Assembly (NCBI GenBank): GCA_017499595.2 | Contig: CM038998.1 | Coordinates: forward strand, 248,001 to 312,000 | Direction of reading: 5' to 3' | From: Psilocybe cubensis | Lineage: Eukaryota | DNA length: 64,000 nucleotides | Shown: one piece after another, positions 979-46,520 of the stretch | Numbering within the stretch: position 1 is the stretch's first letter | How the letters are laid out: every line of letters starts with the position of its first letter | Translations under genes and position numbers: made by a program | Notes under the pieces: model-generated | Seen by the model: the letters and a program-made list of their open reading frames with translations, nothing else | What the model was told of the DNA's origin: nothing | Database searches by the model: none

Positions 979-1696
979 TGCTTTAATGTAGGTAGATTAT
1001 GTCTACATAGACCTTTGGCTTGTTTTTTTATAAGAATCTCCCTTCTGCCTGCTTCCAAATTAACTAATAAACAATGTCTTCTATCTACTGATAACAAGGT
1101 AGATGTGAAAGTATTGTATTTTAGGCATCATTTTTCTTATAATTCATTGACATAGAATAGTCTGAGACTCATGCTGCTTGGAAGCGCATGCAATATGATT
1201 AGCAGATAAGCCTGTTGTAGCCACATGCCACTTTGATCAATGCACCCGGTTGATGGTAAAGGGATTCTCAATTTATTAATTCATCGCTAATGCACATGAA
1301 ATTACACTGATACCACATGAGCAACTATCTATTGAGACCTCCACCTGATATGTGAGTGCATTCTAACATGATGGAGTGCTATTCTATACTACAAATTAAT
1401 TGTATCTATGTTTAAGTCGTTGAATTTAGCCATGCCGCTCTCCAAACGCCTGTTACCATGTGCGATTGATTTGTTCTAAGTCAACTTTCTCACGGCTGTG
1501 AACTTTCTCACGATGTCGCATTCTTCTTTACTTGCATTTTAGGATGTGCCGATGTGTTACCGTTGGGCCGAAATTAAGTCTTTTAGTTTGATATGCCTAA
1601 GTATATATGAAAGCGCAGCAGTTCTTAAGAAAATACCTTTATTTTGGGTGACTGAGTACAAAGACAAGTACAATTAATAGCAAGGCTAACAGTATA

Positions 1697-4600: not shown

Positions 4601-5319
4601 GCAATAAGTACCTCTAACTGATCATGACTCAGATGGGCGCTGAGAAATATCTCCGCAAACTCGAAGTCAAGACGTGTACGGAATGGGCGCCAAGGCCTCT
4701 GGTCCACATTGACAGATTTTAACGGTGAATCGCCTTCGCTGTCAAGCTCGCAGTATTCGTCAAAAGTATAATTTGCATCCGGAATTTGGGAGCTTGGGTG
4801 ATACTTAATGTGTATGTCTTGAAATTGGGGCGTGGTACTTCGAGCTTGCTCAAAATGGACATCTGATTCGGAATCCTCTTGCATTTCTAAATTACAACAT
4901 CATGAGTAGCTTTTTATCTGTTTTTCTATCAATTAAATGGTGCTTACCTTCGGAGAATATATTTGGAAAGTTTGGTACTTCTGGTAATATACTGGCCTCA
5001 TGATAATTGTTTGGATGTTGTTGTTGAGCAATTCGGATTGCATTGTCAACTATTAGAAATACAAGCATTAGAAATATGTATGCACAGAAGTAGGTACCAT
5101 CTTTCCATTTCTGCCCTCTTGCTCAGCAAGAGCAACAAATTCTGTGTCAATTTCCGGTGTGTGATGGTTTGAATTGGCTGGATTGAGTACGCATCGTCGT
5201 TCATGAGCTCCAATTCCACGAGGAAGGTACATGTTTGTGCACCAGGTGCACTCAACACGACCCGGATCTGCATGAGACGTCATGTACCCTTTTGACTGAG
5301 CTGTTTTACGAGGAGGCAT
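1697..5319 (-). CDS. Plavaka transposase (multi-exon, apparently intact)
   Basis: Motifs PWRPFRTRLDFEFAE, RPLWEW, DEPWTANTWWDIQ, WADKSQLSSFGTVKGYPV..ANLP..IRNG.G.GGG, SADYEE, CPICLVP, FDVLHAYDGG, WNFPKAH, NTKPYEK; ATG at 5319; sense codons at the positions that are stops in copy 2. Confidence 0.85.
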
Positions 5320-6028
5320 ATTTGGTGAGAGGCTTGTAAGAGAGAAGATAAGGGCGCTATTTGTTCATTTAAGAAAGCACAACTTCCACTGTAATTTATA
5401 CTTTTCTATGTCTTAAGAAATCAAGTAATATTAAGCTAGAAGAGTTCTATACCTTTTCTAGAAGTTTACATATCTACTTTCTTGTGGAACTAAGTGTCCT
5501 AAGCATGCTAAACTTGGTAAATGACAAAAAATCGAAGCCATTAAAGGCATTTAAAGTGTTCTATTGTCTCTTTTATTTGTGTTTAGTATCACGATATACA
5601 GTCTAATCATACAACTTAGTGCACAGATTGCCCGTAGAAGCATAATGTGTGGTGCTATCAGTGTTTTTGGTATGCTTAAACAACTCCAAAGCCTCTATCA
5701 ATTGTTTCCTCACGTCGTCTATGACAAGTCTGAATCCCTAGTGTACGTTATCTTATCTTAAGGTCATTTATAATATCACACTGCCCTTAGCATTAACAGG
5801 AGGCGGTCTCGCTTATCATACCACGTTGTGCATTTTAGCCCATTAACAATGATCTGATCAGTAAAATCGGGGCAATGATCAGACTAACGCCTGAAAAGGC
5901 GATCTAGAGGTTACCGACACACGTTGACGAAGCATGCTGCGTGTGTCAGCTGAAAAAATATGTGGAACTTCCTTCACTTCAGAATATTTATAGACTCTAT
6001 GAACAAAGAAAAGAAGTGGGCCTGTGAT

Positions 6029-6147
6029 AGTCTTCTATGATCAAGACAAAGTACGTCAATCACACGCGTAAGTTAAGTCTTCTATGATCAAGACAAAGGA
6101 TGTCAAAGTCTTCTCTGATCAGGACAAAGGATGTCAATCACACCGTG
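6029..6147 (+). repeat. Three imperfect tandem copies of AGTCTTCTATGATCAAGACAAAGGATGTCAA
   Basis: Copies start near 6029, 6076 and 6107; possibly subterminal repeats of the CACTA-like element. Confidence 0.8.
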
Positions 6148-6866
6148 TGACTGGCAACTGCCCTTCTAGAACTGTCAAAGCGTTTCAGCCATTCATACGT
6201 CGATTATACACCAGCCGATACGAAGGTGAGAGTGACGTTTTGTGGCTCTGTCAAAGAAAGTGGCACTGTAGTACTATTAATAAATACAAGCAGAATGTGT
6301 GGACCTCATTGGCTTCGACTCATTCGTTAGACAAAGAAAGTCCACCAGTGTGTGTCAAGCACATTGCGGTCCGCTGTATGAAATTTCAGAGGCTTGATTA
6401 AGATGTGCGGCATGAATCATCAAGATAAACAGATAATTCTAAACGTTCTCTGTCAGCTGATACCTAGATTTGGAAGATACAATTCGCTTTTCAGAGTAAA
6501 ATTTTACCATCCGATTTGAAGGTACGTTTCCCGAAACAGGATACTCTGACTTGATTAACTTTTGGTGTGAAGAAAAAAATGGCTTGAGCCATTAATTTTA
6601 CATTTTTGTGTCATTGGATCCCAAATCAATGTGAAAAGAGCGTCGTATGTATTATACCGCCACCTCATGTACCCATATCTCTCTCCTAGAAGACGGGGAG
6701 TTCATGGTCAAAGAAATGTGTCTCAACATGAGGCAGATTGAAGAGAATTGCTCATTGAATTGCCCGATGGTAAGCCCATCGTTGGAAGATATAAAAGACG
6801 TCTGGTTTGTCAATTATGTTTTCCCTCAGTGCTCAGTATCTAGTGCTTGGACCAGCACAAGTCAAG

Positions 6867-8776
6867 ATGTCCTTCAGAAGTTTCTACACCAGCGACAACG
6901 CACACCTTACATCCCCCACGGCCAGTTACCGCGAGCGTACGTGATTTTGAACCCATGACATGTTTAATTTGATCTCTGACATTAAACACGGTATCAGCCT
7001 TGTCCGATAGCTCGTTCACGTCGTTCCCTCCATCGATTTCGTCTTCAAATTGCAGTGAGGACAGCTTTCAAACGGCATATCAAGGCACCTTTTCCCCCCA
7101 GTTGGAGGATACCTTTGTTAATCATTTCGGGTTTTACGACGAGGTTGATTCTGACGAGAACACCTTTGCAACTCCTTCGGTGTCATCCGATGGCTCATTC
7201 AAAGCTGCAGACCCGGGGCATGGCATGGTGACTATGGTAAGGCTGAATTGTAGTGATTAATATCATATACTAATATTCTTTCAAACACACCAGGACTTGA
7301 ATGTTGGCAACACCAGTGAAGAAGCGCATATTGGCAACACTGGTGAAGACGCACATGTTCGTATAGTGATTTGTATAGTCAATATTTGACATTTTAACTC
7401 TCTTAAAATAGATGGATCAAACCCTTGATGTATCCGAGACTGATGACGATTCTGACGACGAGTACATGCCCTCTAATGACGAGCATGAGATGGTATGTAG
7501 TATGCAAAACAACTTTTCCGCTACTTACTAATTGTGATATCATTTTCAGATGATGACTGACGCCACAAATGTGCGCCTTACACGCTTGGAGGCAAATATT
7601 GGTGCCATTCTGGCTGCCATAAAGTCTCTGACAGCACAGGTTGAGGCGCAAAACAATGCCGCTACTCGAGTTAATCAAGAAGCCCCATGCTCACGTCGGG
7701 AAAGGCCATCAGACCCGCCCAGTGGACCCCGACGACGTTCTTCTGACCACATCGCACTTATGGTGAGTATTTTTCCCCAAATTTGCAATATTCAACATTA
7801 AAAGGAAATACAGCGCCGTATCCGTGCAGAACTTACTCGGCTTCTGGGTAACGATTTCATGGAAATGCAAAACTTACCCAGTAAAGACGAACTTGACGCG
7901 TTTGCATCCATGTGGAACTCCTCTATTGAGGAGGTCCGTCCACTATGCTGTGATATCTCTGCCTTCAGGATTGACTTGACTGGCTCTCCAAAGAGTCCCT
8001 GGAACCAGTCCGCCTCAAGGGTCTTTGCTAAGCATTTTATCAACTCAACATCGATGGGGTACAGTTACTTTCCCCTTGTCCAGAATTTCTTCTTCCGGCA
8101 TATGAAGTCACTCCAGGCAGCATTTCGTAGAAAGAACGCCGATGATGCTGATAGAAGAACCGAGACTACTGCCAAGCGCCGCTGGCAGAGGAAGCAGAAC
8201 GTGTGTGACTTAAACCCTTTCCCCAGAGACTTCTACTAACACTGCTGAATCTTGTAGCTTTACCATAAGCGCTTGGGCATTGCACAAGAGCATCCACTCC
8301 TCCAGCCCCATGTCGCTATGCTTCAGCGTTTGGGAATTGGTGGCATGAGTAGTGACGAAAGCGATTATGAGGATGAAGTTGAACACGGTGCTGTACCCAG
8401 CAGCGGCCCGGCTCCGAGGTATATCGTACATCAGCCTGCCTGGCGTGCTGCTTCCCTTTCGTTTTGGTTGCAAACCATCGACTCTGTTCAGATCATTCTT
8501 CGAAAGATCACTGGAAGGCACCGGGGTGCATTCCCTCGTCTTCGCGTCGCCTCGGAGATTGAGAGCTCTAGCAGAAGTTTTGTCCCGGACCTCCCCATCA
8601 ATGCGTACAACCCTGTTTGGTTGGCCTCACGTCCGTTTTTCCAATTCGAGGTTCGTCCAACAGATGAGACCTATAGCTTCAATCACGATAACCGTTTATT
8701 TACGTGAGTCCACTTTTACTGTTGGCACACTCACACTGCTAAACGAGTCATTGTCTACAGGTATTTCTCCATTTAA
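6867..8776 (+). CDS. Accessory protein of the CACTA-like element (multi-exon)
   Basis: First exon (ATG 6867) splices in frame to ORF 7000; last exon ends TAA 8774-8776; motifs FRIDL..SPWN, GMSSDESD, PAWR..WLQTID and LPINAY..WL, which I recall from ORFs next to basidiomycete Tnp2 transposases. Confidence 0.65.
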
Positions 8777-9524
8777 CTTTGTAGCTGCTGAATCCAATGG
8801 CAGTCACGTTGTCCATTCCTACCATAGAGGTCCCGAAAGAGGGATGGAGCGTAATATGTGTATTCTAGTACACACTCTCGTTACCTATTTCAGTTACAAT
8901 GTACATTTTTTGACAATTTAACAAATTGACTTGCGCCCACTTTATGTGTTATTAAAGTCTGCATTTCGTGAATGCAATTACATGCGACAAGGACCAGTAC
9001 TCTAACTTGTAATCACTTTTTCCGACTCACCTTCAATAATTATAGAGACGGTCGTGACGTGACTTAGGGACCGGTTGGATGTGAGAGCGTGTGAAGACAT
9101 ATAAGTCTGAAAAATCAGTTCTAATTAAGTTTTTCTGGGACCGTTGTACATGTATGACTACTATGGTATCAGAAATTAACATGCCAGTGAGGCATAAACA
9201 CATTCCATAAATCCATCTTTGACGCGCCTCGTTCAGCCTGCTCGTCAAGGGTGTGATCCGCGTGTTCGGCCTTTCGGCAAAACCTCGTGACCGTCTGCCA
9301 AATTTGGCAGGCGGTCACGAAAAATTGTTGACCGCACCTGTGAGAATGCCAGGCACTGTCCGCCACCTTTTGCCTTTACCACCACCTCAACTTTTTTGCC
9401 ACCATCCCCCTCCTCGTTACCGACGCTGACCCACGCGACACAAGGAGAGGAAGGGTACGAGTATGGTAATGACAACACGGGTAGGGTTTAGGTACGTACT
9501 CCCCCTCATTTGTTCTTGCAGCAC

Positions 9525-9770
9525 GCCTGTCAACAACATCGCCCACGCCACCCACTTGCTCGTCAACGCCGCCCACGTCCCACACATGTTAATGACCCAC
9601 ACTGCTGTCAACGCCGCCTACACCTCACCCACCCGCTCGCTTGTCAACGCCGCTTACACCTTCACCCACCCAGTTATCAATGATGGCCATCATGCATCCA
9701 ACCACTCGCTCGTCAATGTCCCTCCGCTCACACCTGACACCCACCCCCTCGTCAACGCCGCCGTACCTCG
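9525..9770 (+). repeat. Degenerate tandem repeat with core GTCAACGCCGCC (~7 copies)
   Basis: Cores near 9529, 9562, 9607, 9643, 9675, 9711 and 9750; reads as LVNAA repeats in ORF 9463-9861. Confidence 0.7.
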
Positions 9771-10151
9771 CACCATCCACACCTTCCGCACCGCACCCAT
9801 CCCGCGCCTCCGTCCAGTCCATCACCCCCCCCCCCCCCAATGGTCATACCACCGCCCTTGACGACCGCGTGCGAGTGTCCCACATCCGCCGCACGTCCCT
9901 CCACCAACCGTCGCCAACAAACGCATATCGATACAAACCTCCCCATCCACGTCGATTTGGCCATGGAGCCGGTTGGTAGAGACCCACAGACTGGTGTGTA
10001 GCGTGCAGTACAGTGGGTGCGGCGTGGAGCTGCCAATCAATGTGAGTTTTTACCGTTTATTTTATCGGTGACAATTCTCTCGAGAGACACACGATATACA
10101 TGTACAGCGTCGTAATGCATTAACTCAACCACTTGATCTCATCTACACCGA

Positions 10152-12803
10152 ATGCCTAGAAATTTTCGGGTACGGAAATACGCCAGCGCATCCGGTGTAG
10201 TTGAATCGCTCATCTCTCCCCTCCCAGTCCCCTCCCCATTATCTACAAAGACCACTGGCAACTACCCCGTGAGACGTAAAGCTGGTTTCATTTGTGTAAT
10301 AATTGAGTTGTTGAACTCGAATGCACATATGCAAACCACTCTCTCAGATTAACCACGCTGTTCAGTAGACGCAAATATACATGTCTCACGTAGATTGCCG
10401 TGGCTTAGCTAAAGTAGTATTGTAGGTATATGTACACCTTATGAGCCCCACCATGTCGCATTGCCCGCAACGAGTTCAATGAGGCACACGTGTGGGAAGA
10501 CAGAGTGCAAGGTGAATTTACACTTAAGCCCGGTAAGCCATTGTTGGATTTGTAGCACTGCGAGTATTTTTTAGTGCAAATTGAAATTGTATGCAGAATG
10601 GAGAAACACAGTTAATCCGAGGACTTCGCAAAGTCTCCCACAATCGATTGAACCACAAGGCCGATTGATCACGTCGAAGGTTTAGAACCTGGAGCCTGAG
10701 TAAATTTTACTGTTACCGAGGTCTGTGTCTTCGATGTGATTGAAATCAGTGTGCTTGATTGCTAGATCTTTCTTCGATCTTGAAATGGGCATTTGTTCGT
10801 TATCAGAAATTCTTAAGTATGATTGTTGCAAACACGATTCGGAGCCCTTTCTAATTTTCACAGTCGATACCATGGAGTCTGTAATTGAGGACTTTGACTC
10901 GTCCGATGCTTCAGATGACATCAAACAACTACCCAACCACAGCAGACGACCCTTTCCTCAGATTGAGAACTTTCCGGATATTGATGTTGGTATCGTTCAA
11001 CATGCATAATTTAAAGATTACACTCAATTTCCGCCTTTTTTTTACAGTTATTCACTCATGATTTCGGGGAGTTGAACGTGACAAGGTTTGCATTAAGCTC
11101 TATAACCTTTGTACTATACATTTACCTTCATTTAACAGTCCTGTGTATCACCCTCATGTGGACGAACACTCCTCCAGTAGACACCACCGTTATTCCGCCA
11201 TCGATAGGCAGCAACATGAACTCTCTGCAAATAATGAAGGGAATAGCGCCCAGCGGTTCCCGCAGAATATCCCGCATCAGACGCAGCAGAACTGGTCCCA
11301 CGACGTCGAACACGAGCTAAGGCGGATATCTGGATCGAGTGTACGACGTTTGGAAGCTCAAGATAGGTCTGAACACCGCCATAATGAGTCACTGAGCAGT
11401 GGACGCCGTGAAATGAGTCTCCCCTTTATGAAAGCACCCTATTGATTGGAACTAGAGGAGAAGAAAGCCCAGGTCCGTAGAGTGGTGGCATATTTTTTTA
11501 GATCCTCCACCGCTACTCCAGAAATTATTCAGCAGTTTGTGAGCGTCATGACTGGCACTAAGGACGACTATGGCGCTTTACTCGGGCATATGGATATCTT
11601 GGGCCCACTTACTAGCCATGGAGTCATTGGAGAGGTTTACAACCACCTGCACTTCATTGTTTTTGGGTACGAACGAGACGCCTACCCCCCGTACGTAACT
11701 ATATTGATACACCGACCATACTAAGTCTCTAACACAATGAATCATTTTACAGAACATCGCTCTCGTATACTCCGGTTAATGGCATCATCCAAGGCGAAAG
11801 GACTGAGAACGTAGTTGGACCATTCAACGACAACGACCCAGGATCAATTTCAGCGCCCAATAGTCCTAGAGACCATGTATCAAATCAAACATCCATAAGG
11901 GTGCCAATAGCTCGTGCAGCTTACGATCCTCCGCCCCCGTCCACTCCGTCACCACGGGATAACCCACCTACTACGTTAGTGGACCAGATCCCAAACAGAC
12001 CTCAGGAGCTCTCTGTATCCTCTACAGGAGAATATCCACGCTCTGCACGCCAAACATCCTCGAATTTTGGACAGAGGGATACTTTACTTATGCCCCAGCC
12101 TCTGCAAGCACCTATATTGCCTAGACAGTTTACCACACAGCAAGAACCCGCTGTTCATTCTAGCCCTCGTCGAGTCCCCTCTCCAGAAATGGGAGCGACA
12201 TCAACCTCATCTACTACCACTGCTGTGCCTGCATCTCTCCTTTCCCCTTTCTTGTCAACTACGCCAAGCACCTCAACTGCTTCCGCAAAAGCATACCTTG
12301 CAGCACTATCAGCTAAGGTTAATCGTAACGAATTTGAAAGTGTAGACGGTGGCACCATAGCGTACACTGTTACCATCTTGTGTTCTGAGGAGCCTCTGGC
12401 CGACCCTCCTATCGATGCCTTGGATGGACCACCTGAGCCAGGTGATCTGTTATTCAATCAGTACCCGAATAGTGCACAGTCACTTCGGAATGCTCAGGTC
12501 TGGATTTACCTTGACAGTGCCACTCCCCAAGACAAAGGCAATTGGCTCGATATTAAATCGCAGTATGGTACATTCTCTGGGCCGGGAATTTCCCACCCCA
12601 AAGCTCCGGATCGCTATCTTACTACGTATGCAGGAAAGGAAGGACGTCCACGTTGGATTAAGAAGAGTACGTGGGAATCTAATCAGCGAAAACATCTGGA
12701 AGAAGTTGATAGGATGCAGCGGATCTCCAAGGGCCGTGCAACAGCCACACCTACTCCCTCCGCAGCCCCATCTACAATTTCTAGAAGGTCAACTAGGGGC
12801 TGA
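10152..12803 (+). CDS. Hypothetical multi-exon accessory protein inside the CACTA-like element (5' structure uncertain)
   Basis: Chain of + strand ORFs with splice sites ending in the 300-aa ORF 11901-12803 (PGDLLFNQY..QVWIY..W..HP..RYL..PRWIK). Confidence 0.5.
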
Positions 12804-12918
12804 TGCAACGTTGGAATCCAATCTGGTAGCTAATTATAGTTAGCTTGTAAGGGCATGTAAATTACAACTCAAAGGGTCATGAATCAATTACTTTTCTTTC
12901 CACTTCTCCCTCAATAGT

Positions 12919-15900
12919 ATGATAAGGCGTGGCGGGCGTGGTGGACGCTCCCGACCTCCAATAGTGAGGTGCAAATGCAAATCGCACTGCACAACATTAA
13001 ATCCCGCTACGGGACTCTATGAGGGCGAAGGGGTCCTGCAAACACGTTCTACTCGGGACAACCATACCAAGGATGATAGAATGCTCGAGATGACTAGAAA
13101 TCTTGCGACTGCGTCTACTAATCTGGAGGTTAACGCTTCTGTGGATCAACTACAGCAGATTCGTGACGAAATTGATCTTATAACATCCCAGCCACTCTCA
13201 GACCCCCTTTGTCCTTTTGTCTTTACCAATAGACCAGAAGAGAATGGACCTTTTGTCTGGCCGAACGAGCACGATTTTTTGCTTCCAAATCATGGGTTAT
13301 ATGCTTTAAAAAATGAGCTCGTCAACAGGCCATACTTGATGACTGCAAATCGCTTATATGATATATACAACTGGGCCTCTAACCCTTTCATTCAACTTGA
13401 CGGCGATATTGACTCCTTACTGGACCACATAAAAGAGAAGATGGCAGAATTGGTGCGCTTGAAAGAGGTTGAATGGTGCCAACAACGAGGAAACAGTCGC
13501 ATAGATGGTCCATACGTCAATACAGGCAAGGACATCGATTCTTACCTTTTCAGAACTATGATTAATGAAATGTTTCGGACAGATATGTATTTCCAATCAT
13601 TTGGTCCAACAAATCCCAGAGAACGTGTTGCAGTATTTTTATCACTTGTTATGGAGAACATATTTTTCACACCGCGTCGTGCACTTTGGGCAATGCTAGC
13701 TGGGGCTAGGTCGCTACTTCGATCAAATATGGCCACTGAAACTGTTTTAGCGGAAATTCCTGCTGATCCAAGGTCGGGATCTTCTCGAGCGCGCCTCAAC
13801 CCCACAACTCGTCAATTTGTTGTCTGTCCAAAATGTCACAAATTGTACTCTCTAAAGCCAGGCGATAGTCCCCTTAATATCATCAACCCCTTCATTTCTG
13901 TATGTGTTGAGCGCCATACCCCGGAGTCAACAGAGTGTAACACACCCCTTTGGAAGAATCGCACCACATCACTTGGAACCTTGTATCCAGTGCCTATTCG
14001 GAAATATGTCCATCAAGACTTAAAATGCTGGGTTGGGCGTCTGTTATCTAGAAAGGGAATGGAGGCGATCCTCGACCAGCAGAATGTTGACCTCACTGAC
14101 AACTCGCCCACATCACCAATTGCGGATATATGGACCGCAAAGATATTCAAAGAGTTAAAGGATGCTGCAGGAAACAGATTCACTCCTGGACCTCCTGGAG
14201 AAGGAAGGCTGATTTTCAGTCTGTCAGTTGACAGCTTCAATCCTTTCCACAATAAAACCGCAAAGCAAACCTTGTCATCTACTGGTATTTGGATGGTTTT
14301 ACTCAATCTCCCCCCCCACCTCCGATATCTTCATGAGAATATGTACGTTGCAGGCGTCATTCCAGGCCCAGACAAACCATCAAAAGAAGATATATACCCA
14401 TACATTGAACTAGTCAGAGACGACCTCTGGGATTTCTGGTTTCAGGGTGTCCGCTTCTCGCGCACAGAGAGCAGCATTTTTGGTCGATTATACAAAGCAA
14501 TGCTAATTCCACTCATTTGTGACATGCTTGCTGCACGACAAATTGCTGGACTGGGTGCAACTACGTCGCACTGCTTCTGTACCTTCTGCGAAATGGATAT
14601 CGACGACATCAATATTGCAGATAGGGATGAATGGCCAGCTAAAGATCTCCAACATATTCGGCGAATTGCTGAACTTTGGAAGAATGCAAGTAGCGAGAAA
14701 GAGCGGGATGTAATTTTTGAGTCATATGGCATACGGTGGACCCCTCTGCACACTCTTCCCTACTGGGATGTCATACGCTTTACTGTGGTTGATCCTATGC
14801 ATGCGTTGGACCTAAACCTTTTTCAAAATCATTGCAGGTCGATCTTTCAGATTGACGTGGATTCTAAAGGTGGAGATGGAATTGGTTCAGCAGTCCGGCG
14901 ACAACGACGGCTCACTTCCGAAGATTCTCTCCGAAGCATGCGTCAGTGTCTTGTCCTCATTCAGTCCAACAATTCCGATTTGATTCCTATGCTTTTGCTA
15001 CATACCCGTCCAGTACTCTATCAGATCTGCGTCGATAACAGCATCATTGGGGAAGGACACCGATTCATTGTGGGAACTAAATGGATATTGGCAAATAATA
15101 TATCAGCATGGGTACGTCTGCTTACATGCTTCACATCTCAGATCATGATTTAACGAAGGTTTGTTGGTTTCTTCTCTAGAGAAATAGTTCGGCTTATCAA
15201 GGTGTTGCTGACCACCCTGACGTTGGTGAAGATGAACCAGCAGAAAACATACCAGAGATAACACAGACACCAAATCTCCCTGTTGAAAGCGGAATGGACC
15301 GCGCCCTTGTAATCCGAATTTTGAGAAACCTCTTTGCCGACGACGATCCCGAGATATCTCAGGACAGAGCGTATGGCCAGGGCTCTGTCCCCATATTTCT
15401 ATATATCTGCAATCTTGTCCAGATACCAACCACCGATGTTGACGTACGACGGAAAGCAGCAAAAAGGCGATTATTCAGAAAAATAACTAGTGAGGTGAGT
15501 ACGACTTCCGCTGTGACTGTAATAAAGCACTGACCTTGAGTAGATAGAGAAAGGCAACGACACAGCTCGCATGTTACAGTCTTATATTCCAATATACGAA
15601 TCTCCCCGTCCTGTGCTTGGAATTGATGTCATGGAGGAAGTGTGGGCAGATATGACGCGTACCCAGCTGCCTACGTGGGTCACTCCTGCTCCACCTGATT
15701 GGGGAACAACTAGAAGAGGGAAGCTCAGCGCTGATAACTGGAGGATTGTCTGTTCAATTCATTTGCCAATTACTCTTATTCGCCTCTGGAGTAACAACAC
15801 TGATCGTAAGCGTCAAATGCTTAATCATTTCATGGACCTCGTCTCCGCTGTCCGAATTGCCAATATGCGAATCACAACACCCGTTCAAATTGATGAATAC

Positions 15901-16950
15901 AATCGTTTAATGGCCCGCTACGTCTCTCAAATCACCACATTGTATGCCGATCAAACTCTCAAACCATCACATCACGCCGCTTTGCATATAGGCGATATGC
16001 TAGGTCTGTTCGGACCCAATCACTCACATAGTGGCGCGCACTACGAGCGATATATCAATTTCTTTCATCGTGTCAATACAAATCAGCAAATTGGTAATAT
16101 TTTCATTTAATGTATCAAGCACTAAAATGACATAGTTTTGTGTAGGTGTGCTAGAGTCCACATTGCTTCATACCTCTGCGCGGAGTGCCAACATACGGGC
16201 GTTACTCACTGGTGACTCGGACATTCGAACCTCGATTATGGAGCTCGTCAATGTCATGGACAATGTTGACCAAGAGGACATTCGAGGGTTTCGATTGGCA
16301 TCCATACTTGACCCTGAATCGCCCACATATACCCAAAGAAGCAAGTCTGATGTTCGCTCGCTCGATCCAGTATATCATCAGCTACTTTGTCAACGCCTAT
16401 CGCCAGACCATCAGCCGACCTTAATGCCACGGGACGGTACATTTCTGAAGGAAATTTCCCGCCAAGGAGTATGTTATGGAATATCTACAGCTTCAACCTT
16501 TAAAAACAGCGCAATCATGTTTCGACCTCATGACCAGCAAAATGGACCTTTACACGCTGGAATAACAAAACACATCTTCCGTTATCGTTATCCAACTGCG
16601 CACAACCAGTATACCGAGGACCATTTCTTTATTGTGCAAGAGCTCGTGCCAATTGATAATCCACTCATAACCGACCCTTATAGGACTTTCATATTTGGGG
16701 GTTTCCTTTGTAAAAACACGGGCCCTGAAGTAGTCATCAAGCTGTCGGAGGTTGTTTCTCATTGCGCTCTCACACGCTTAGAAGCCACCCCATTCAATGG
16801 TTTACTTCATGTCCTACCTTTAGATAGAGTAAGTTCACTTTCATGCATTTGTATCCTCATAGATTAATGCTAACATTTTGTTCAAAGCTGATGTTGGAGT
16901 TTGATTCATTGGGACTTAGTAGAGGTGAGGGTCCAAACGAACTAGACTGA
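12919..16950 (+). CDS. CACTA/Tnp2 (Transposase_21)-like DDE transposase
   Basis: Motifs CPKC, SVDSFNPF, LNLPPHLRY..N..GVIPGP, ICDMLAAR, FCTFC, LPYWD..VDPMH, GKLSADNWR, HHAALH..LFGP..YERY; the three downstream introns and the final one splice in frame to TGA 16948-16950. Confidence 0.88.
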
Positions 16951-17285
16951 GGAAACGTGGGAGATCCACATTTAAGATTTCGGCAAATGTCACGGATCAC
17001 GGCTGCCCAATGTCTTTCTGTGGAAACATAAGTATATTAATTTGTAGAGGTATGACAGAACAAATAATTAATATTATCGAAGAGGAATCAAAAATAACCG
17101 ATGTTGCATCCGCGAATCCATTAGAAAGGAAAGACAGAGCTTAAACAGTAAACAAAACAGAAGACGATCTTTCAAAAGGTAAGTTGCGGATATCGTGACG
17201 AATCATACACTAACTATTTTACAAATAGTATTCAAAGTATTTTCGTCGATTTCAGGGTAGATTATATGTGCCAATGCCCACAGTG

Positions 17286-19607
17286 TGACCTCATTATTTC
17301 TTGAGGCAATTGGCGTCCGAGGGAATTGGATATCTGTACCTTTGATTGATGCAGTCGAGGTCATCTCCCCTGTTGCAGCATTCAAAACGCTTGGTAATTA
17401 TATCCCACATCCATGGATACGTACAAGAAGAGCCAATAGGAGCGTTGTCAATTTTTGCCCACAAAACCCACTTAGTCGAAGGCGGATATACATTCGGCGG
17501 AATTTCGACCATAGTGACGAACAGAATTTGCGCACCACCTGAGTAGTACCCAATGTTTCTCCAGCAGACATTTGGAGTCTCAGCTATCCAATTGTAAAAC
17601 CGGGACGCTAAGGAAGCAATGTTCAATTATTGCAACAATTGTACGAGCATTAAAAGAATTTACGCGAGTCAAACGATCCAGTATCTTCGTGGGGCCAGTT
17701 TGGGTCCGGATTCTGGTCAGTAGGATGGCGGGATTCCGCAACAAGACAATAGTGAGCTCCCGATGGCAAAGGGGCAGGGTTGAGCTTATTAAAAGGGGTG
17801 TCTATTACATTGAAACTGTTGGCCGATGTTGATTTGATTCGACGAATAGCGGTTGTGTTTCCATCATGCTGATCGTCATCGTTAACCGATTGGCTGGCGT
17901 ACATAGAGGGGTAGATGAGCAGATCGCCTAGAACACAGAAAAGCCTCGTTTCAACGAGGTAATCGTTGCCCAAAGTGCAGTTTCCGCGGAGATAAATATA
18001 GTTTGGTGCGCCTTGCTGGAGATTGATGGTATTATTGGTGGACCAATCTACATTGGAGTTTCCACCACCTAAGATGGTAGTAAATTTGGGGTTGTTATGT
18101 GTTCCAACAGGTTGAATGTCTGTAAAACAATGTCAGATATTTGTATTTGTGATGCTACTAGCATAATCACCAGGTGAGTTGGATCCATACAGGGACCGTG
18201 GGAAATTATTCGTATCGTTTAACCTATCGCGGAACCACCATCCAGTTGCAGCGCCATATATCCTGAGGTTTTCTGTATTTTCAGCAGTCATTGAATCTGC
18301 ACCGGCTTCGGCCTCCGGAATTTTAGAATATTCCTGAAGTTGGTTAGCCGCATGACTTGCGTACTTCAAATGGGTGACAGCCTCATCGTGGAAAACAATG
18401 TTCAGGGCGCCCAATAAAAGAGTTTCTCCGATTGGGATGGTCCTAGTATCTTCTGAAGGGGGTTGAATAATGTTGGCTTGGAGAGAGACCCAGGCAAACG
18501 TATCGATGACTTCTTCGGGCCCTGGAAAGATGTTAAGTGTGATAATGTCGTCAAACCCGGGTTCTAAGTCAACCTGGACTCCAACATCGGGAGCGAGAGG
18601 GGACTTGACCATGTAGATGGTACCAGTTGTAGATGAGAGCGAGAACAATGTACCGCCTGGCATTATTGAGGTCTGGTGCATTTATTTTCAACGTGTTTTC
18701 TTGCCAGTACATTTTAGCAATGAAAAAAATTACATCAATGGTGATATGGAACTTAAGTGGCTCCGTACCGTCATCGAATACCCGAAGACGTGTAGAAACA
18801 CTAATGATGGGAGCTTTGGGATCAGCGACAATGACCTGAGAAATTTTAATTAACACTTGGTTTCTAAAGAAATACTTCGACGTACGTTGTAATAAACTGT
18901 CGAAGTGTCATTCTTCAAGAAGTCGGCGAGATCCTTCCAATTCTTTGCATCTGCAGGAGGACGCGGCAAAGTGTCCCTCAAACGTGTTTCTGGAGGAGGG
19001 GGAAGGATGTTGAGTGGGGACTGGGTAGCAATCAGGGCATAATTGACACCACCCATATTGGGCAGTGTGAATCTGAAAGGCGTGGCACAAGCGACGACTA
19101 CAGAGCGATTAGAAAATCTGATGACTCCCATACCAAACTTTAGTAATCACCTTCGTCCGGAGCGGAAGACTTGACAACCAATGGTCCAGGGCCAGTTGGC
19201 TTCACTTTGTTCCATACTTGAGGCCATAGAATGAGCTCGCTTGGTGCGGCACGGAGAACAACTGCGGTTTTAGCTCCGGGTTCGACATCGCCAATTGATT
19301 TTCCACGAATGTAAACGTAATTTGTGTCATTTGGTTGGACCGGAAGACTAATAAATTGGGAATATTCATCGATCAATAGATGTGGTGTAAGTCTGTTCCC
19401 GTAGTGTGGGATGATATCTGGCGTCTGCGGAATATAAGCATTCTAGTATAGCAAGAAAGGCAATATTGACAACTTACAAACGCTGTCGCCTTGGAGGACG
19501 GATAGTCGGATGTTAAGACTGTATGACCCTCAGGATAGGGTATTATGATTTGACTCGACCAGCTTACAGTTTCTAAAGATCAAGTTGTTCGTACGATGTT
19601 TAGACAT
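17286..19607 (-). pseudogene. Tandem-domain protein family, paralog A (3'-truncated)
   Basis: ATG 19607 (MSKHRTNNLIFRN); exon-by-exon homology to B and C; the last two exons (TRGCGF..., WPFSVGIHHPG...) are missing beyond 17286. Confidence 0.8.
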
Positions 19608-21252
19608 CAGGAAAGATTTGAACTTTAATTGAAAAGGTAGAGCTGGGGTTCCTTTAGAGGTAGACCTAATAATTATTGAGTATTGCGCAAGCTTATATAG
19701 TATTCTGTGCACTTCGTTGATTTCTACGCTTGATGAACTATAGTTGATGACCAATGAATCATTTTCCAGACTTGTCAATCCTCTTGCGTCATGGACAGTA
19801 TTTCTCCCAGGCTTTCATAGCTCTGTCCCTTCTTGATGCAATTGGCAGTACGGAAATGAAGTACACCGGCGCCAAACACTTCGACTACGAGAGATTCTAG
19901 GCCTATATCAGGTATGCCGTTGCACATTTGACAACTCTTCTGCTTCACGCTGTGGCCACATGAGGGGTATGCTCCCTGTACCAAATAATCACCGGACATG
20001 CACGCTTAACGTACAACAGTTAAAAAAGGGTCTTTTGAGGGCTTCACCTCGATTGGCAGCTTTTTCACAGACGGAATTCCAGCCATTCAGCCTACAATAG
20101 TCTGTGAGAACCTATGATCTATAAAGTTATATGCTTTTTTGTGTTTTGCAATATCCTTTTAACTTTTGACTTTGTTCGCTCATAATAATCATTCAAGGAC
20201 GTTTAACAAATTTTAAAGAGTGGTTTTCATTAATACAGTGTTTGTAGTATAGCATCAACGATAACAGTTAAGGCCATTACGATTTCTGCCCGACAACAGC
20301 AGGCTGCTTAGAAGCATTGTAATACATGATTCTACACCGCTTGTGAAAACACGACTCTCCGCAAAGTCCAAATCCCGGAATTAACAAAGCGCTGGAAATA
20401 AAAACCATGAGAATCCCCCAATCCACGCACGTCCCTTCCGCACCCAAATAGTACATGCAAATCAGCAGACCAATCTCGGCCCCAACGGTGCCTGGCACAC
20501 TCAGAGGTATGCGCTTATAGAACTTAGAAACAATGTCATGTTCTCAAGGCCGCGTCCAACAGATTTGCTGGCTCTCACCCAGAGACAGAAGCGTAGTTAA
20601 AAGCGTGTCAGTTAGAAAGAACGATGATGTTCACCTTTGACAGGGAGAATGCTTGAGATTGGGAGGGTCCGGCAAGAAGGTTTGCGTGTGATCTTTGCCA
20701 TCAGACCTCTCCTTCAGCGTTCTTCGACGTATTAGTATTACGCAGCCTACCGTCCGAGAACGAGAGTCGATTAATTAAATGTAGCTACTCAAATGATATG
20801 TCAGGAATCATTTTGACGGCTGAAGTTGACCAAAAATAGCAACACTGTTCTCATCTTTTGAGGATACGAAAAGATGGAAGTGGTTATTTATGAGATGCAT
20901 GATACTTCATAGTATATTCAGGCCTAATACCGCACCTTTCAATCCTCACGAAGTGTCAACGCACATTGGTAGAATGTGAGTGAGATCAGCAGATCACCCG
21001 CATATTTTAGCACAAGCTGACGGGCAATGGGCATCGGGGTCCAATACTATCGTTTCCACGTCAGCGCTGAGTTTTGTCAGTGATTATACTCGAGCTGAAT
21101 GTATATCCCACACGCTGAGAAACTAAATTTGCCCACCGAATAACGCTTTCCCATTTTAGCGCCCATTAGTATTACGCGTTAATTTCCGAGATATAAATAC
21201 GTTCATTAGCGCACAGACCGGGGTGAGTGTGAGTGGAAGGAGTACACTACGA
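18340..21252. repeat. Left arm of an inverted segmental duplication
   Basis: 18340-21100 matches the reverse complement of ~43715-46520; 21100-21252 matches the reverse complement of ~40772-40985. Confidence 0.85.
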
Positions 21253-21621
21253 AACACACCACACTGATAGCACATGACACGGCACATGGCACGCCTGCCG
21301 CGTTGGCTTCAAGTTCAAGTTCGAGTTTGAGTTTGAGTTTGAGTTCAAGCCCTTTGGCTAGTCCCTCACCCCATCACATCAAACCCTTCAATGTCAGTGG
21401 GAAACTGGGTCTTAAGTCGTACAATGCAGAAGTTCTCCGCAAATATATCAAAAATCATCAAAGTAAATGTGTTTTTTATTGTTATAAAAATGTGTGTTTT
21501 GTAGGGCAATAACAGGCCCGAAAAATGTATATCAGGATGTTTCTTTAAATGTTAATTGTTGCAGAAGCGTAAGAAGTTAGATTTGAGCATATGTCCCGCA
21601 TCATCACGGCTAACACTTGAG

Positions 21622-24450
21622 CTAATCATGAAGCCATGTATCCGAACCCATTACAAAGCCCGTAACGGGTGTTTTATGGGGCCAGGGGTTGGGACCGATA
21701 GTCTTAAAGTGATCTCCAAGATATTCAATATGGTTCTCACTGATTTCGGCATTAATCTTGTTCTCGAGTCCTGGATGATGTATACCAACGCTGAAAGGCC
21801 AGTTGGCTGCCTCTTCAGGGAGAGTAATAGTGGCCGCGGGATGGATCATGTTTGGCCTAGTACGTTAAAGGTGTGTAAGTGTGTAAGTCCTCGGGATATA
21901 CAATAGGAACTCGACCTACCCTCCGTTTCTCTTGTGCCTGACGAGCTGGATGCCAAATCTCATGTCATTTGGAACATTCTTGCCCTCGGAGAACCATTGT
22001 AAATTAACCCGGAATTTAATACCACCTGGAGGAATTCCTGTAAATCCACATCCCCGAGTCTATAAAGTTTTTTGGGCATCAATTTCATTTGGTCAATCGG
22101 AGGAAAATTAAAGTGCATACGGACCTCCCTGTCGCCCGAAGCAATTAGCGTCCTAGGAAATAGGATCTTGGCACCTTCAATCGAGATGTCTGAAGTCAAT
22201 TCCCCTGCGGTAACAATTATAGTGCTTTGCAATTGTAACCCAAGTCGATGAATACGTACAAGACGAGCCCACTGGAGCGTTAAAGGCTTCTGCTATCACA
22301 TACCACAGGGTAGACGGCGGATAAATGTTACGCGGAATTTCAATTGTAGTGGTGCATATAATGGTGGCACCGCCATGATAGTACCCAATGCATCTCCAGC
22401 AGATATTGGGTGTATTAGCTATCCATTCGGCAAATTTGGCACCTAAAGAAGCAAATTTCAATTATTGGACAATGTTATCAAAATAAAGAGAATTATTCAC
22501 CAGAGATAAATAAATCAGTGTCTTCGTGTGGCCAGTTTGGGTCCGGGTTCTCGTCAGTAGGATGGCGGGACTCGGCAATGAAGCTATAATGACTTCCTGA
22601 TTGTGGAGGGGCAGGGTTCAAGAGGTCGAAAGGCCTGTCCAGCACATTGAAACTGGAGGCCGATGTGGATATGATTCGCCGAATAGCCGTTTTTCTTCCA
22701 TCTTGATCATCGCCATCTGTAACAGCGTACAGGGAATACATAGGTGGGTAAAGAAGAAGACGGTCTGGGACGCAGAAAAGTCTCGTTTCAACAAGGTAAT
22801 CGTCGCCCAAAGTGCAGTTTCCACGAAGGTAGATATAATTTGGTGCGCCTTGCTGGAGGTTGATCTGATGTTCATTGGACCAATCTAGATTCGAATTATA
22901 ACCACCTAAGATTGTCTTGAATTCCGGTTTATTTTGCGTCCCGACCGGTTGAATATCTGAATAAATACATCAGGGAGGTTCAATCGACAGGCAGATCGCA
23001 CAAGTACCAGGTGAATTAGATCCATATAGTTGCCGTGGAAATTTGTTTACGTCAAACAAATGATCACGGAACCACCATCCAGTTGCACGACCGAGTATCA
23101 TGGTGTCGGAAGTCGTTGGAATTGCGCCAGCTTTGGCCTCGGCATCTTTCGTATTGATATATTCCTGAAGTCGGTTAGCCGCATGACTTGCGTAGTTCAA
23201 GTGAGTGGTGGCCTCATCGTGGATAACGATGTTCAGCGATCCGAGGATTTCATCATGGAGTGAGCCATCATTACCTCCTATATTAACACTGGCTCGAAGG
23301 GAGACGAAAGAAAGGGGGTCACAGAGACCATCTGGCGCAAGGAAAATGTTGATAGTAAGGATGTCGTCAAACCCGGCAGATAACGGGACCTCGAAATAAA
23401 TGAGCGGGCCTGGAAGCCTACACTTGGCCATATTGATAACACCAGTTGTTGAAGAGAGAGATACATATGTTCCCTCTGGAAAAGCCGAGCACTATTATGA
23501 TGTTGATGTTAACATCTCATCTCACCCGCACGGCCGTACGGTTTCAAAGGGAAGTAAATACCAAAATCGTGATAATAATCGGCAGTGGTTCTGTGCCATC
23601 ATCAAAGATGCGAAGACGTGTAGAGGCGCTAATGATAGGAGCCTTGGAATCCTCGACAACAAACTGAAAGGGATCATTAGCATTTGTTTTTCCATCAAAA
23701 GCCAGTTTTAACGTACATTGTAATAAACTGTCGACGTGTCATTGTTAAAGTAGTTAACAAGATCCTTCCAGTTCTTTACATCTGCTGCAGGAGGCGGCAA
23801 AGCATCCCTCAAACGTGTTTCTGGAGGTAGCGGTGTATTGAGCGGATACTGGGTAGCAATTAGGGCGTAAGTGGTACCGCCCATATTGGGCGGTGTGAAT
23901 CTGAAAGGTGTGGCACACGCAATGACTGCAGAGCAATTAGTAAAAATGTCACAACATCCACGCCAAAATATGACCAATTACTTTCATTCGGAGCGGAAGA
24001 CGTGACAACCAATGGTCCAGGGCTAATCAGATTTGTTTTGTTCCACACTTGAGGCCATAGAATGAGCTCGTTGGGTACGGCACGGAGAACGACTGCAGTG
24101 CGAGCTCCTGGCTCAACATTAGGGTCTGATTTCGCTCGAAAATAAATGTTGTTTATCTCATTTGGTTGGAGCGGGAGATTGATAAGATTGTCGTATTCCT
24201 GGATCAAGAAATTAGGATCAAGTTTGTTGCCGTAGTGCGGAATAATGTCTGGCGTCTGTAGGGATTTTAGTACTGGTGACAAAATATATTGATAAGGCAA
24301 TTCAGCCCACAAGCTCTAGATACTTCTTTGCCGAATAATTGGTCTTTCTTAATGCTATACACGTAGCCATTAGAGAAGGGCATTGCAATAGGACCCAACC
24401 AACTTACAGTTCCGAAACATCAAGTTGTTAGGCGGTACTTCATGAGCCAT
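21622..24450 (-). CDS. Tandem-domain protein family, paralog B
   Basis: ATG 24450 (MAHEVPPNNLMFRN); TPDIIPHYGN, LILWPQVWNK, GWWFRD, NYIYLRGNC, CWRCIG; ends GSDTWLHD* at 21622. Confidence 0.8.
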
Positions 24451-31690: not shown

Positions 31691-32291
31691 CTTATGTCGG
31701 AAACCTCTAGATCGCCTTTTCAGGCGTTAGTCTGATCATTGCCCCGATTTTACTGATCAGATCATTGTTAATGGGCTAAAATGTACAACGTGGTATGATA
31801 AGCGAGACTGCCTCCTGTTAATGCTAAGGGCAGTGTGATGTTATAAATGACCTTAAGATAAGATAATGTACACTAGGGACTTGTCATTAATAGATGACGT
31901 GAGGAAACACTTGATAGAGACTTTGGAGTTGTTTAAGCATACCAAAAACCCTAATAGCACCATACATTATGCTTCTACGGGCAATCTGTGCACTAATTTA
32001 TATGATTAGATTGTATATCACGATACTAAACACAAGTAAAAGGGACAATAGAACACTTTAACTGCCTTTAATGGCTTCGATTTTTTGTCATTTACCAAGT
32101 TTAGCATGCTTAGAATACTTAGTTCCACAAGAAAGTAGATATGTAAACTTCTAGAGAGGTATAGAACGCTTCTAGCTTAATATTACTTGATTTCTTAAGA
32201 CATAGAAAAGTATAAATTACAGTGGAAGTTGTGCTTTCTTTAATGAACAAATAGTGCCCTTATCTTTTCTCTTACAAGCCTCTCACCAAAT

Positions 32292-35200
32292 ATTCCTCCT
32301 CGTAAAACATCTCAGTCAAAAGGGTACATGATGTCTCGTGCAGATCCTGGTCGTGTTGAGTGCACCTGGTGCACAAACATGTACCTTCCTCGCGGAATTG
32401 GAGCTCATGAACGACGATGTGCACTCAATCCAGCCAATTCAAACCATCACGCATCGGAAATCAACACGGAATTTGTTGCTCTTGCTGAGCAAGAGGGCAG
32501 AAATGGAAAGATGGTACCTACTTCTATGCATGCATATTTCTAACGCTTGTATTTTCTAATAGTTAACGATGCTATCCGAATTGCTCAACAACAACATCCA
32601 AACAACTATCACAAGAGTATATTACCAGAAGTACCAAACTCTCCAAATATATTCTCCGAAGGTAAGCACCATTTAATTGATAGAAAAACAGATAAGAAAC
32701 TACTCATGATGTTGTAACTTAGAAATGCAAGAGGATTCTGAATCAGATGTCAATTTTGAGCAAGCTCGCAGTACCACTCCCCAATTTCAAGACATACACA
32801 TTAAGTATCACCCAAGCTCCCAAATTCCAGATGAAAATTATACTTTTGACGAATACTGTGAGCTTGACAGCGAAGGCGATTCACCGTTAAAATCTGTCAA
32901 TGTGGACCAGAGGCCTTGGCGCCCATTTCGTACACGTCTTGACTTCGAGTTTGCGGAGATATTTCTTAGCGCCCATCTGAGTCATGATCAGTTAGAGGTA
33001 CTTATTGCCCTAATTCATCAAGCCGTCACATCACCAAATGAATTCACCCTGAAAAATGATGCCGATTTAACTCAAATATGGACTTTTGCACGGGAAACCC
33101 GTGCACAAGGAGTACGTGTGCACTGCAACTTTATTTAACAGTTTATTATTCACCAGACAGCTGTTGGCAACTGGTTTAGTTTATCAAGACGCCTATTTCG
33201 GTCAATTACAAGGGTGAAAGCCTTACCTACAATGTGTGGTACCGTCCCCTATGGGAATGGTGCCGTGAACTTCTTCTGGATCCAGCACTTGTCCGAAGAT
33301 TTCACTGGAATGCAGAACAGTTGTTCATGTATAAAGGAGAGAGGTTTGAGCGCATAATTGATGAGCCATGGACTGGGAACACTTGGTGGGACATCCAGGT
33401 ATCACAATTTTAATACTTCATTGAGAAACAAGTCTATATACTCACAAAATGTTTGATATGTCAAAGTCACGGCCAGATATTCCAAACGACGCTAGTTTAA
33501 TGTTCATCAATCCTTGGGCAGATAAATCCCAATTATCATCCTTTGGAACAGTCAAAGGCTATCCTGTCATGGTAAGATGTGCAAACCTTCCTGTTAATAT
33601 CCGGAATGGAACTGGAGTTGGAGGAGGTCGACTTATTGGCTGGTTACCCATTGTATGTCTCCATTTTATTAAATGATTCAAAGTTTCTCAAATAGCCCAT
33701 ATCTTTGCTAATGTTATTTGAATTTCTCTTATTATAGCCAGACGAGGATTCAGCCCATACTCACAAAGCCAGCTACGTTGACCTCAAACGGTTAATTTGG
33801 CATAAAGCCGTACACAAAATCCTACAGTCAATTGAAGCGCCAGCAACCTTTGGAGCTGCAATCAAGTGCGGAGATGGAAAGATTCGAAATATCTTTCCTC
33901 ATATTCTCTCAATATCTGCTGACTACGAAGAACAGTAAGCTGTATTACGAAAGTAGAGTTCTGTAGCATAACTAACTTATAATTTTATTGACAGGACAAT
34001 GATGGCATTGACACGAGGGCGAACGGGACTGTTTCCTTGCCCAATTTGTTTAGTTCCAAATTCCAAGCTCTCCAACATTTCAACCGTGTATCCTTGACGC
34101 ACAACCTCTCAAATGCGTCAAATTTACATTCGTTCCCAGAGTTTAAATGCAACAGAAAGTGAAGAGCTGCTTAAATCATATGGGATTACGGATGTTATGG
34201 TATATTTCAAATAAGCGCCCATTATCCGGGTGATTGTTTACTCTGGTGCTGAAATTATATTTTATATTTTAGAATGTATTCTAGGATATAAACCGAACTG
34301 ATATATACAAAGCACTCTCCTTTGATGTGCTACACGCTTATGATGGGGGACTATTCAAATCACATATGTTGGTGGAGCTGAAAGCAGTGCTCAGGGATCT
34401 AGGTAGAGATGCTGAGGTTGGTGTAGATCTTGGTCTGCAAAGTATCCCCCCATGGCCTGCACTCAACCATTTTGATGCACTAAACAAAACCGGAGAAATG
34501 TCTGATGGACGAAAGTTTGAGCACCTATCCAAGGTTATCATTTTTGCTGCTCAACATGTGCTGACTGCTGAAGCTTCTCCACGTGGATACTTACTACTAC
34601 GGCTAATTCGGAGCTACCTAAACCTTCGAATGTTTGCTTCATTAACTCTGCAAACGGAAACATCAATCAGTAATGGCCGGAAATATCTTGAAACATTCAG
34701 CAAAACTCTTCAGGTGTGTTTCTTTTACAAATATTGGTTTGTGGCTTACTTTGTCATAAAATTTTAAAAAAATAGTTGTATGCATCTGAAAGTCCGGAGA
34801 AGTCTTGGAATTTTCCCAAGGCACATACGCACCAGCATATCTTTGACGACATTCTTGATAAAGGTGTAACTCGCAACTATAATACAAAGCCATATGAGAA
34901 GGCAAATGGACCATTGAAAAAGTTCTATCAGAACCATACCAATTTCAAGAATGTAGCACCACAAGTAAGCCATAAACTATATTATTTTATGTGAGCAGTA
35001 CCTTATACATAACTGAATCACTACATCTTTTTAACTCATCAGATTCTCCAAGTTAACGAAATGGATCTTGTGTCAAATATTGTACGTGATGGAATAGACT
35101 TACTCGATGTCTCTGTGGAGAAAAATATAGAAGATGCAGAAGAACGAGACGGCCTAGACCTGCCAGCAAAGTCTAAGCCTGGGAATGACCATATACATCT

Positions 35201-39658: not shown

Positions 39659-39778
39659 CAATCCCACTCCAATCCCACTCCAATCCCACTCCAATCCCAC
39701 TCCAATCCCACTCCAATCCCACTCCAATCCCTCACTAAATTTCCACTCCAATCCCTCACTAAATTTCCACTCCAAATC
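39659..39778 (+). repeat. Minisatellite (AATCCCACTCC)x6 followed by two copies of a 24-mer derivative
   Basis: Directly visible. Confidence 0.9.

Positions 39779-40771: not shown

Positions 40772-46520
<5,749 letters not shown>

Follow-up and report, generated by a model that had tools for sequence, protein, structure and literature searches.

Copying of a promoter and first protein module between clustered paralogs of Psilocybe cubensis, with JR316_0000071 as the probable chimera

A 64,000-nucleotide (nt) stretch of Psilocybe cubensis DNA (contig CM038998.1 of assembly GCA_017499595.2, positions 248,001 to 312,000; hereafter the window) carries three intron-bearing paralogs, here called A, B, and C, of an unnamed family of proteins of ~750 amino acids (aa). 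About 2.9 kilobases (kb) of DNA, consisting of the promoter, the first of two protein modules, and the introns within it, have been copied between A and C at a synonymous divergence (dS) of about 0.2. The exchange between these clustered paralogs is real, its boundary lies at the junction of two modules, and it is statistically solid. Gene C (JR316_0000071) is probably the chimera, i.e., the recipient of an A-type promoter and first module, with A (JR316_0000065) native throughout, as judged from sequence comparison. The first-pass annotation of this DNA had described A as the mosaic, with a C-like 5' half and a B-like 3' half; the pattern that it described is correct, but it most likely named the wrong gene.

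Gene B (JR316_0000066; 24450 to 21622, minus strand; 11 exons, 749 aa; P0010 maps exactly) lies in tandem with A (19607 to 17203, minus strand; predicted model of 9 exons and 658 aa; P0001 maps exactly), and C (45262 to 48111, plus strand; 11 exons, 758 aa; P0002 maps exactly) is inverted and 26 kb from A. No further copies of the family were found in the window by tblastn. The three genes were identified via a protein search with one exon of A, which led to P. cubensis proteins matching the window exactly. Long bacterial-type open reading frames (ORFs) are absent from the region, and the peptides that had been quoted in the first-pass annotation, all of which were found in the genes to which they had been assigned, are spread over shifting frames at the three loci, which points to short introns; those of B and C measure ~50-70 nt. 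Exons 1-6a of A are C-like; the likeness of exons 6b-9 to B is as strong as that of the remainder of A.

The switch in similarity is abrupt. In blastn comparisons, A 18327-20479 matched C 46542-44400 at 86.6% over 2,163 base pairs (bp) that include exons 1-6a, introns 1-5, and upstream DNA, and in the 3' half the A-C match was just 54 bp. Between A and B, matches were obtained at 71.3% over 1,117 bp (A 17303-18405, B 22138-23236) and at 75.8% (A 18756-19427). A sliding-window comparison, proposed earlier as a check, gave A-C identities of 0.81-0.97 from A ~20470 to ~18500 and of 0.50-0.63 below ~18350, where A-B identity is 0.60-0.81. In the three-way alignment, A-B and B-C identities run parallel in the 5' part, as do A-C and B-C identities in the 3' part. 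A maximum chi-square test on the 573 informative coding sites (A=C or A=B) of the codon alignment placed the breakpoint at residues 317/318 of A, where the H of HDEA is encoded (window ~18390), with a score of 174.96 (0 of 2,000 shuffles). On its 5' side, 230 sites group A with C, 39 A with B, and 26 B with C; on its 3' side, the corresponding counts are 93, 211, and 86. The chi-square test and the codon alignment together place the recombination breakpoint at 18385..18400 (A codons 317/318), within the motif LGALN(I/V)VFHDEA, which is conserved in A, B, and C.

Neutral sites switch at the same place. The dS between A and C is 0.21 in the 5' part vs 2.1 in the 3' part (ratio of nonsynonymous to synonymous divergence, omega, 0.35 vs 0.20), and four-fold degenerate sites differ at 24 of 137 vs 48 of 76 positions; beyond codon 317/318, silent sites between A and C are saturated and B is the nearest paralog of A. 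In introns 1-5, A and C agree at 177 of 207 compared positions (86%; z scores 7.5-11.4), whereas their introns 6-8 cannot be aligned and are unrelated, with z scores (-0.8 to 1.3) no better than those of shuffled sequence. Homogenisation of synonymous, intronic, and flanking non-coding sites is found inside the tract and not outside it. Trees of 15-16 family proteins (P. cubensis, P. cyanescens, and three outgroups), built separately for each half as had been suggested, favour different topologies by their support values: the N part (321 columns) gave ((A,C) 97/94, B) 93/98, and the C part (229 columns) gave ((A,B) 99/96, C) 82/91, with a long C branch (0.95).

These data bear on a history without recombination, in which the relationship would be ((A,C),B) throughout and the second module of C would have evolved very fast, a possibility that the first-pass annotation had itself raised against its mosaic. 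At the protein level, A+B was rejected in the 5' part by an approximately unbiased (AU) test (p 0.031), but A+C in the 3' part was not (p 0.278; 229 protein columns), which, like the long branch of C in that part, speaks for such a history. Protein data alone leave this rate explanation standing, but the silent-site and intron data exclude it: introns and synonymous sites also switch, so faster evolution of the protein alone is excluded as the cause, and omega is 0.20-0.24 in the 3' comparisons of C, so there was no burst of amino acid change. A history without recombination is hardly credible, and was rejected on these neutral data.

An assembly chimera between the paralogs has next to no probability. 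Clustered paralogs and repeats are a general assembly risk, and nothing specific in the data supports an error here; the divergence of A from C (13%) and from B (29%) shows that neither of its halves is a copy of reads of the other genes. A contig from an independent study (X5; 1,273 letters, 10 differences) covers 17715-18961 across the breakpoint, and the mosaic structure is therefore not an assembly artefact. Runs X1-X4 contain 0.98-0.99 of the sampled words and may themselves be the source of the window DNA.

At the A locus, the tract shared with C, delimited by blastn and colinear pieces, spans 18390..21253 (minus strand) and consists of ~1.6 kb of upstream DNA, exons 1-6a, and introns 1-5. 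At the C locus, the A-like tract (43719..46479, plus strand) holds upstream DNA with the same exons and introns and stops at the HDEA codons, and a distal piece (40772..40944, plus strand), which contains a (GTGAGT)n microsatellite, matches A 21122-21253 at 85-93.5%. Between the two lies a 2.77-kb interruption (40945..43718) that occurs at the C locus only, has no second copy within the window, and gave no Pfam match among the five ORFs tested; 18 ORFs tested from 37786-43638 and 32247-37883 likewise gave none. A global alignment upstream of the ATG showed A-C identities of 0.73-0.96 per 100 bp, with one window at 0.65, to ~A 21110 / C 43714. The proposal that A and C share their promoter and first domain is borne out, with the correction that similarity extends past the promoter-proximal part and reaches ~1.6 kb upstream of the ATG.

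Which of the two genes received the tract was judged from the distances on either side of the breakpoint. In a set of three, a change there in the distance to both partners marks the recombinant; gene B is the reference here, standing for the A/B lineage in its unrecombined form. The A-B distance stays constant and the B-C and A-C distances change, so that C is taken to be the recipient. Nucleotide identity between A and B is 0.699 in the 5' part vs 0.712 in the 3' part. By the NG86 method, dS is 0.83 vs 0.91 for A-B and 0.905 vs 1.94 for B-C; by YN00, it is 0.778 vs 0.786 for A-B and 0.824 vs not computable for B-C. A is equally B-like on either side, which does not support a mosaic A with a B-derived 3' half. 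Four-fold sites differ at 38/100 vs 44/103 (A-B) and 33/91 vs 39/72 (B-C), and the difference in third-position distance between the halves is +0.006 for A-B (confidence interval, CI, -0.069 to 0.080) and +0.107 for B-C (CI 0.029 to 0.188). These data identify C as the recipient with moderate strength (p about 0.01-0.02, from a two-proportion calculation by hand on the counts).

Maximum likelihood (ML) branch lengths for the three taxa agree. At third positions, the branches of A, B, and C are.087,.613, and.087 in the 5' part and.446,.279, and.815 in the 3' part; under a codon model, they are.12, 1.14, and.20 and then.58,.65, and 1.61. From the third-position branches, the A-B path is 0.70 vs 0.725 and the B-C path 0.70 vs 1.09; from the codon-model branches, they are 1.26 vs 1.24 and 1.34 vs 2.26. 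If the branch of B is taken as 0.279, the A lineage totals 0.42 (5') vs 0.446 (3') at third positions. The ML branches fit a history with C as the recipient without extra assumptions.

The opposite direction, in which C-type DNA would have replaced the promoter and first module of A, itself an old sister gene of B, with C as the donor and B and C unrecombined, yields tree topologies identical to those expected with C as the recipient, and agrees with A and B being tandem neighbours. It is nevertheless unlikely. It requires equal silent divergence between B and C on both sides of the breakpoint, whereas the dS values, the third-position difference, and the ML paths given above all show a larger B-C divergence in the 3' part. 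It also needs a coincidence, namely, that a younger split with a faster 3' half gives, to within a few percent, the A-B distance of an older split with a slower 5' half, in both the third-position (0.70 vs 0.725) and the codon-model estimates (1.26 vs 1.24). For A as for B, GC content at third codon positions is 0.46-0.48 in either half, which offers no ground for expecting unequal silent rates.

Several further points weigh against C as the recipient, beside the AU result for the 3' part. The halves hold ~310 codons each, the distances are near saturation, there is a slight overlap between the 5' and 3' CIs of the B-C four-fold-site differences (0.263-0.458 vs 0.420-0.652), and the silent rates per half come from A, B, and C only. 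Protein-level branch lengths lean weakly towards A as the recipient: the A-B path is 0.83 in the N part vs 0.65 in the C part, a ratio of 1.28, which lies outside the range of about 0.5-0.9 of four other paralog pairs, whose N-part tree-path distances do not exceed their C-part distances; the B-C paths (0.86/1.61 = 0.53) lie inside this range, as they would with A as the chimera. The stem of the A+B+C clade is short in the N part (0.17), which is near the value expected if A were the recipient. Under either hypothesis, one protein branch is off by about three-fold, so that protein branch lengths do not settle the direction, and omega in the A/B/C clade is higher in the N part (0.34-0.35 vs 0.20-0.28), so that relaxed constraint on module 1 can explain the protein-level discrepancy. 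Introns of A and B are slightly closer in the 3' half, where z scores are 2.2, 4.9, and 5.9 and lengths differ by 0-2 nt, vs 3.6, 0.2, 3.3, 0.7, and 1.8 and 2-9 nt in the 5' half, again as expected with A as the chimera; pooled identities are 132/227 in the 5' vs 79/128 in the 3' half, a raw 4-point gap, and those of B-C are 128/227 vs 80/154. As a test of direction, the intron comparison is underpowered.

A third arrangement of the same distances would make C a recent copy of the whole A gene (dS about 0.2) whose exons 6b-11 were later replaced by a lost or unsampled distant paralog. Its distance pattern equals that expected if C received the 5' tract, and the 3' part of C does sit on a long branch (0.95) with a placement support of just 82/91. 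This origin is very unlikely, as it requires two events and an unseen donor, and none of the treed proteins (8 from P. cubensis and 5 from P. cyanescens, of 25 family proteins) is close to the 3' part of C; since no known paralog is close to it, this part is best read as native. A weak match between the DNA downstream of the stop codons of B (21457-21542) and C (48223-48316; 94 nt, 70%, E 4.7e-4), which may represent a conserved 3' untranslated element of the family as far as its sequence suggests, also fits a native old 3' end.

With C as the recipient, the history would have run in three steps. An old duplication would have split the C lineage from the A/B lineage, as silent sites near saturation suggest, and a tandem duplication would then have given rise to A and B (dS about 0.8-0.9). 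Finally, at a dS of about 0.2, ~2.9 kb of A-type DNA would have been copied non-reciprocally onto the inverted C gene 26 kb off; the copied DNA would comprise ~1.6 kb of upstream sequence, exons 1-6a, and introns 1-5, i.e., the promoter and module 1, displacing C's own. The tract would have terminated at the conserved motif in the last strand of module 1, ahead of a hypervariable linker where identity collapses, and the divergence of this linker may be the reason why it ended there.

The two ends of the tract differ in kind. The 3' end lies within a conserved coding motif, and beyond the distal end (A 21253 / C 40772) no A-C similarity is detectable. Older homology does not flank the tract on both sides, as two-sided conversion would call for. 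A one-sided, homology-driven copy, either ectopic gene conversion or break-induced copying, is probably a better description than classical two-sided conversion because the distal end sits in non-coding DNA without evident older homology; this same feature of the distal end counts against the proposed history and makes the mechanism one that we infer, and the A-to-C direction is likewise inferred. The ectopic recombination or gene conversion suggested earlier does correspond to a real non-reciprocal exchange between paralogs, by conversion or a similar copy event, and the switch was rightly located between the two repeat domains.

Interlocus (ectopic) gene conversion is known between clustered paralogs, e.g., in plant clusters of nucleotide-binding site, leucine-rich repeat (NBS-LRR) genes. 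Conversion of this kind is the subject of a published paper (PMC3113787). The A/C exchange resembles such conversion in that a tract was copied non-reciprocally between linked paralogs with an abrupt, supported breakpoint; silent sites, introns, and promoter are homogenised within the tract, support values favour different phylogenies on either side of it, and a second gene pair of the family shows the same pattern. It differs from classical interlocus conversion in the length of the tract (~2.9 kb), of which ~1.6 kb is non-coding upstream DNA, in its distal end in DNA without evident older homology, and in its partners, which are inverted, 26 kb apart, and were already ~40% diverged outside the tract. 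Owing to these differences, a one-sided, break-induced copy fits better than two-sided conversion. Chimeric genes can also form via partial segmental duplication. As in chimeras of that type, the promoter and 5' coding part of one gene continue in frame into the 3' part of a second, with the junction at a domain boundary. Unlike in those chimeras, A and C are homologous, share an identical exon structure, and are joined in register within a conserved motif, which points to homology-guided repair and not to random fusion. The type of event is well known and ordinary for clustered gene families, and the protein family is uncharacterised; a literature search returned no paper combining 'Psilocybe cubensis' with 'gene conversion'.

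The proteins encoded by A, B, and C consist of two homologous beta-rich modules of ~300 aa, a helical and disordered linker, and a C-terminal tail, and hold an internal duplication. HHalign identified residues 9-292 and 373-681 as homologous modules (probability 98.7%, E 4.6e-16, 16% identity). An AlphaFold model of C, built from 23 sequences (mean predicted local distance difference test score, pLDDT, 77.9; predicted template modelling score, pTM, 0.67), predicts beta-rich blocks at residues 31-317 and 398-681 with helices at 319-349 between them, and a low-confidence tail at 684-746. The model places the final strand of module 1 at residues 307-317, and pLDDT falls below 50 at 342-365. The breakpoint coincides with this predicted last strand, and identity dips in the linker just past it in all paralog pairs.

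Searches recovered 25 full-length relatives in Agaricomycetes (from Psilocybe, Jaapia, Hydnomerulius, Serendipita, Cyathus, boletes, Postia, and Phlegmacium) that align end to end with A, B, and C, and P. cubensis itself has eight loci on one contig. A profile search returned 650 proteins at E <= 0.001, 378 of them at E <= 1e-10; many are single-module proteins of ~340-360 aa, and tests of 12 proteins showed fusion of one single-module relative to a papain-type peptidase (Peptidase_C1) and of another to a beta-propeller. No NCBIfam or Pfam model was found for the module in family members and single-module relatives, and the exons of A gave only a sub-threshold DUF3108-like Pfam match (E 0.023). 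In the Protein Data Bank (PDB), a sequence search with the family profile gave one chance-level match (E 0.041), and a Foldseek search with the whole 758-residue model gave only generic multi-beta-sandwich proteins (template modelling score <= 0.13) that indicate no function. The ESM Atlas returned unnamed, mostly bacterial clusters, one of which has CARDB in 12% of its members, aligned to residues 380-614, and is to be read as a lead only. The names of 10 relatives are all hypothetical or unnamed. No N-terminal hydrophobic stretch was seen by eye (no predictor was run). As a guess, the family might comprise non-secreted binding proteins made of beta-sandwiches. A diversifying recognition or toxin family, as the first-pass annotation had put forward, does not agree with the pairwise omega of 0.20-0.35 in all six region-by-pair comparisons (at the whole-region level) or with the lack of matches to a known toxin or lectin fold.

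A second pair of paralogs, JR316_0000100 (P0168) and JR316_0000120 (P0007), which lie outside the window on the same 4.68-Mb (megabase) contig, shows a comparable switch at the protein level. Before the linker, 5 of 345 aligned residues differ, vs 95 of 415 after it; the change point falls at residue 348 of gene 120, in the same linker as for A and C, and 0 of 500 shuffles reached its score. As this pair switches at nearly the same place, the module boundary and the hypervariable linker seem to limit exchange. A broader proposal is that the promoter and module 1 form a cassette that is repeatedly copied between paralogs and always cut off at the hypervariable linker, with module 2 and the tail diverging, in a transposon-rich and strain-variable block; this generalisation is speculative and at present rather doubtful.

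Gene A is truncated. The last position given for it earlier, 17286, is not the end of the gene but a structural junction (17286..17287) within exon 9, at which homology to B ends and on either side of which strains differ according to read evidence; the frame is open to 17203-17205. In the databases, JR316_0000065 is modelled at 546 and 555 aa, with both models ending in '...DSRKFF' through read-through into intron 7 (window 17203-17664). With introns 7 and 8 placed via GT..AG at the intron positions of B and C, the predicted frame would remain free of internal stops across exons 8 and 9 as far as the stop at 17203-17205. A has no equivalents of exons 10-11, its final 27 codons are unrelated sequence, and four C-terminal tblastn queries (E <= 5) for these exons gave no match in the window. 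A single RNA run, chosen by guess (X13), returned 0 records.

Reads from other strains differ at and around this junction. X5 reads (about 99% identical) cover 17286 upward and not 16500-17195, and in X5 a 36-letter piece beside the truncated end of A matches 21522-21557 and may belong to the putative 3' untranslated element mentioned above. X6 and X11 reads run through 16500-17286 and then pass into DNA that differs from window 51458-51487 at one of 30 positions (16 reads in X11), and X11 has zero depth across 17370-18760. On one haplotype of other strains, the 34.2-kb block with A, B, and C (17287-51457) may thus be missing, relocated, or rearranged; its ends showed no terminal inverted repeats, target-site duplication, or microhomology. 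X6 contigs match 18932-21094 at about 96% and end where A-C homology ends. In X5, loose ends that share one inverted terminal sequence overlap by 8 bases at 17715-17722 (exon 7 of A) and occur also at 21040/21235; in X11, loose ends with this sequence overlap by 7 bases at 21419-21425. This terminal sequence is found nowhere in the window, and the loose ends with their 7- and 8-base overlaps look like insertions, absent from the window, of one transposon family, one of them in exon 7 of A. Depending on the strain, A is truncated, interrupted, or partly missing.

The DNA abutting the truncated end of A contains an intron-free transposase ORF of 744 aa (12919..15153, plus strand; Pfam Transposase_21 (tnp2), E 1.4e-11, 44.4 bits vs a cut-off of 28.6). 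No terminal inverted repeats were found around it in 6000-17400, and the same-strand ORFs beside it (11901-12803, 15571-16110, and 16148-16867) gave no Pfam match. The window also holds an AT-rich inverted repeat of 5.9 kb (2-5919 and 31695-37606; 95.5% identity, GC content about 0.39-0.41), which could be either a segmental duplication or a mobile element that has degenerated; none of the eight ORFs tested in its second copy gave a Pfam match. A neighbouring ORF (54625-55290, plus strand) with P-type ATPase domains (E1-E2_ATPase, E 2.8e-16; Cation_ATPase_N) belongs to an ordinary gene.

For users of the gene models, two corrections follow: the probable chimera is JR316_0000071, not JR316_0000065, and the 546- and 555-aa models of the latter read into an intron of a gene that is truncated at a strain-variable junction. 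Otherwise, the event is a routine paralog exchange of modest interest in a family without a described function. It shows the remodelling of a lineage-specific mushroom gene cluster, in which a promoter and a whole structural module were moved in register between paralogs. If the promoter and module 1 were indeed a repeatedly copied cassette, the copying would amount to a concerted-evolution and diversification system for a non-secreted mushroom binding or defence protein, and the linker would act as a built-in recombination boundary.

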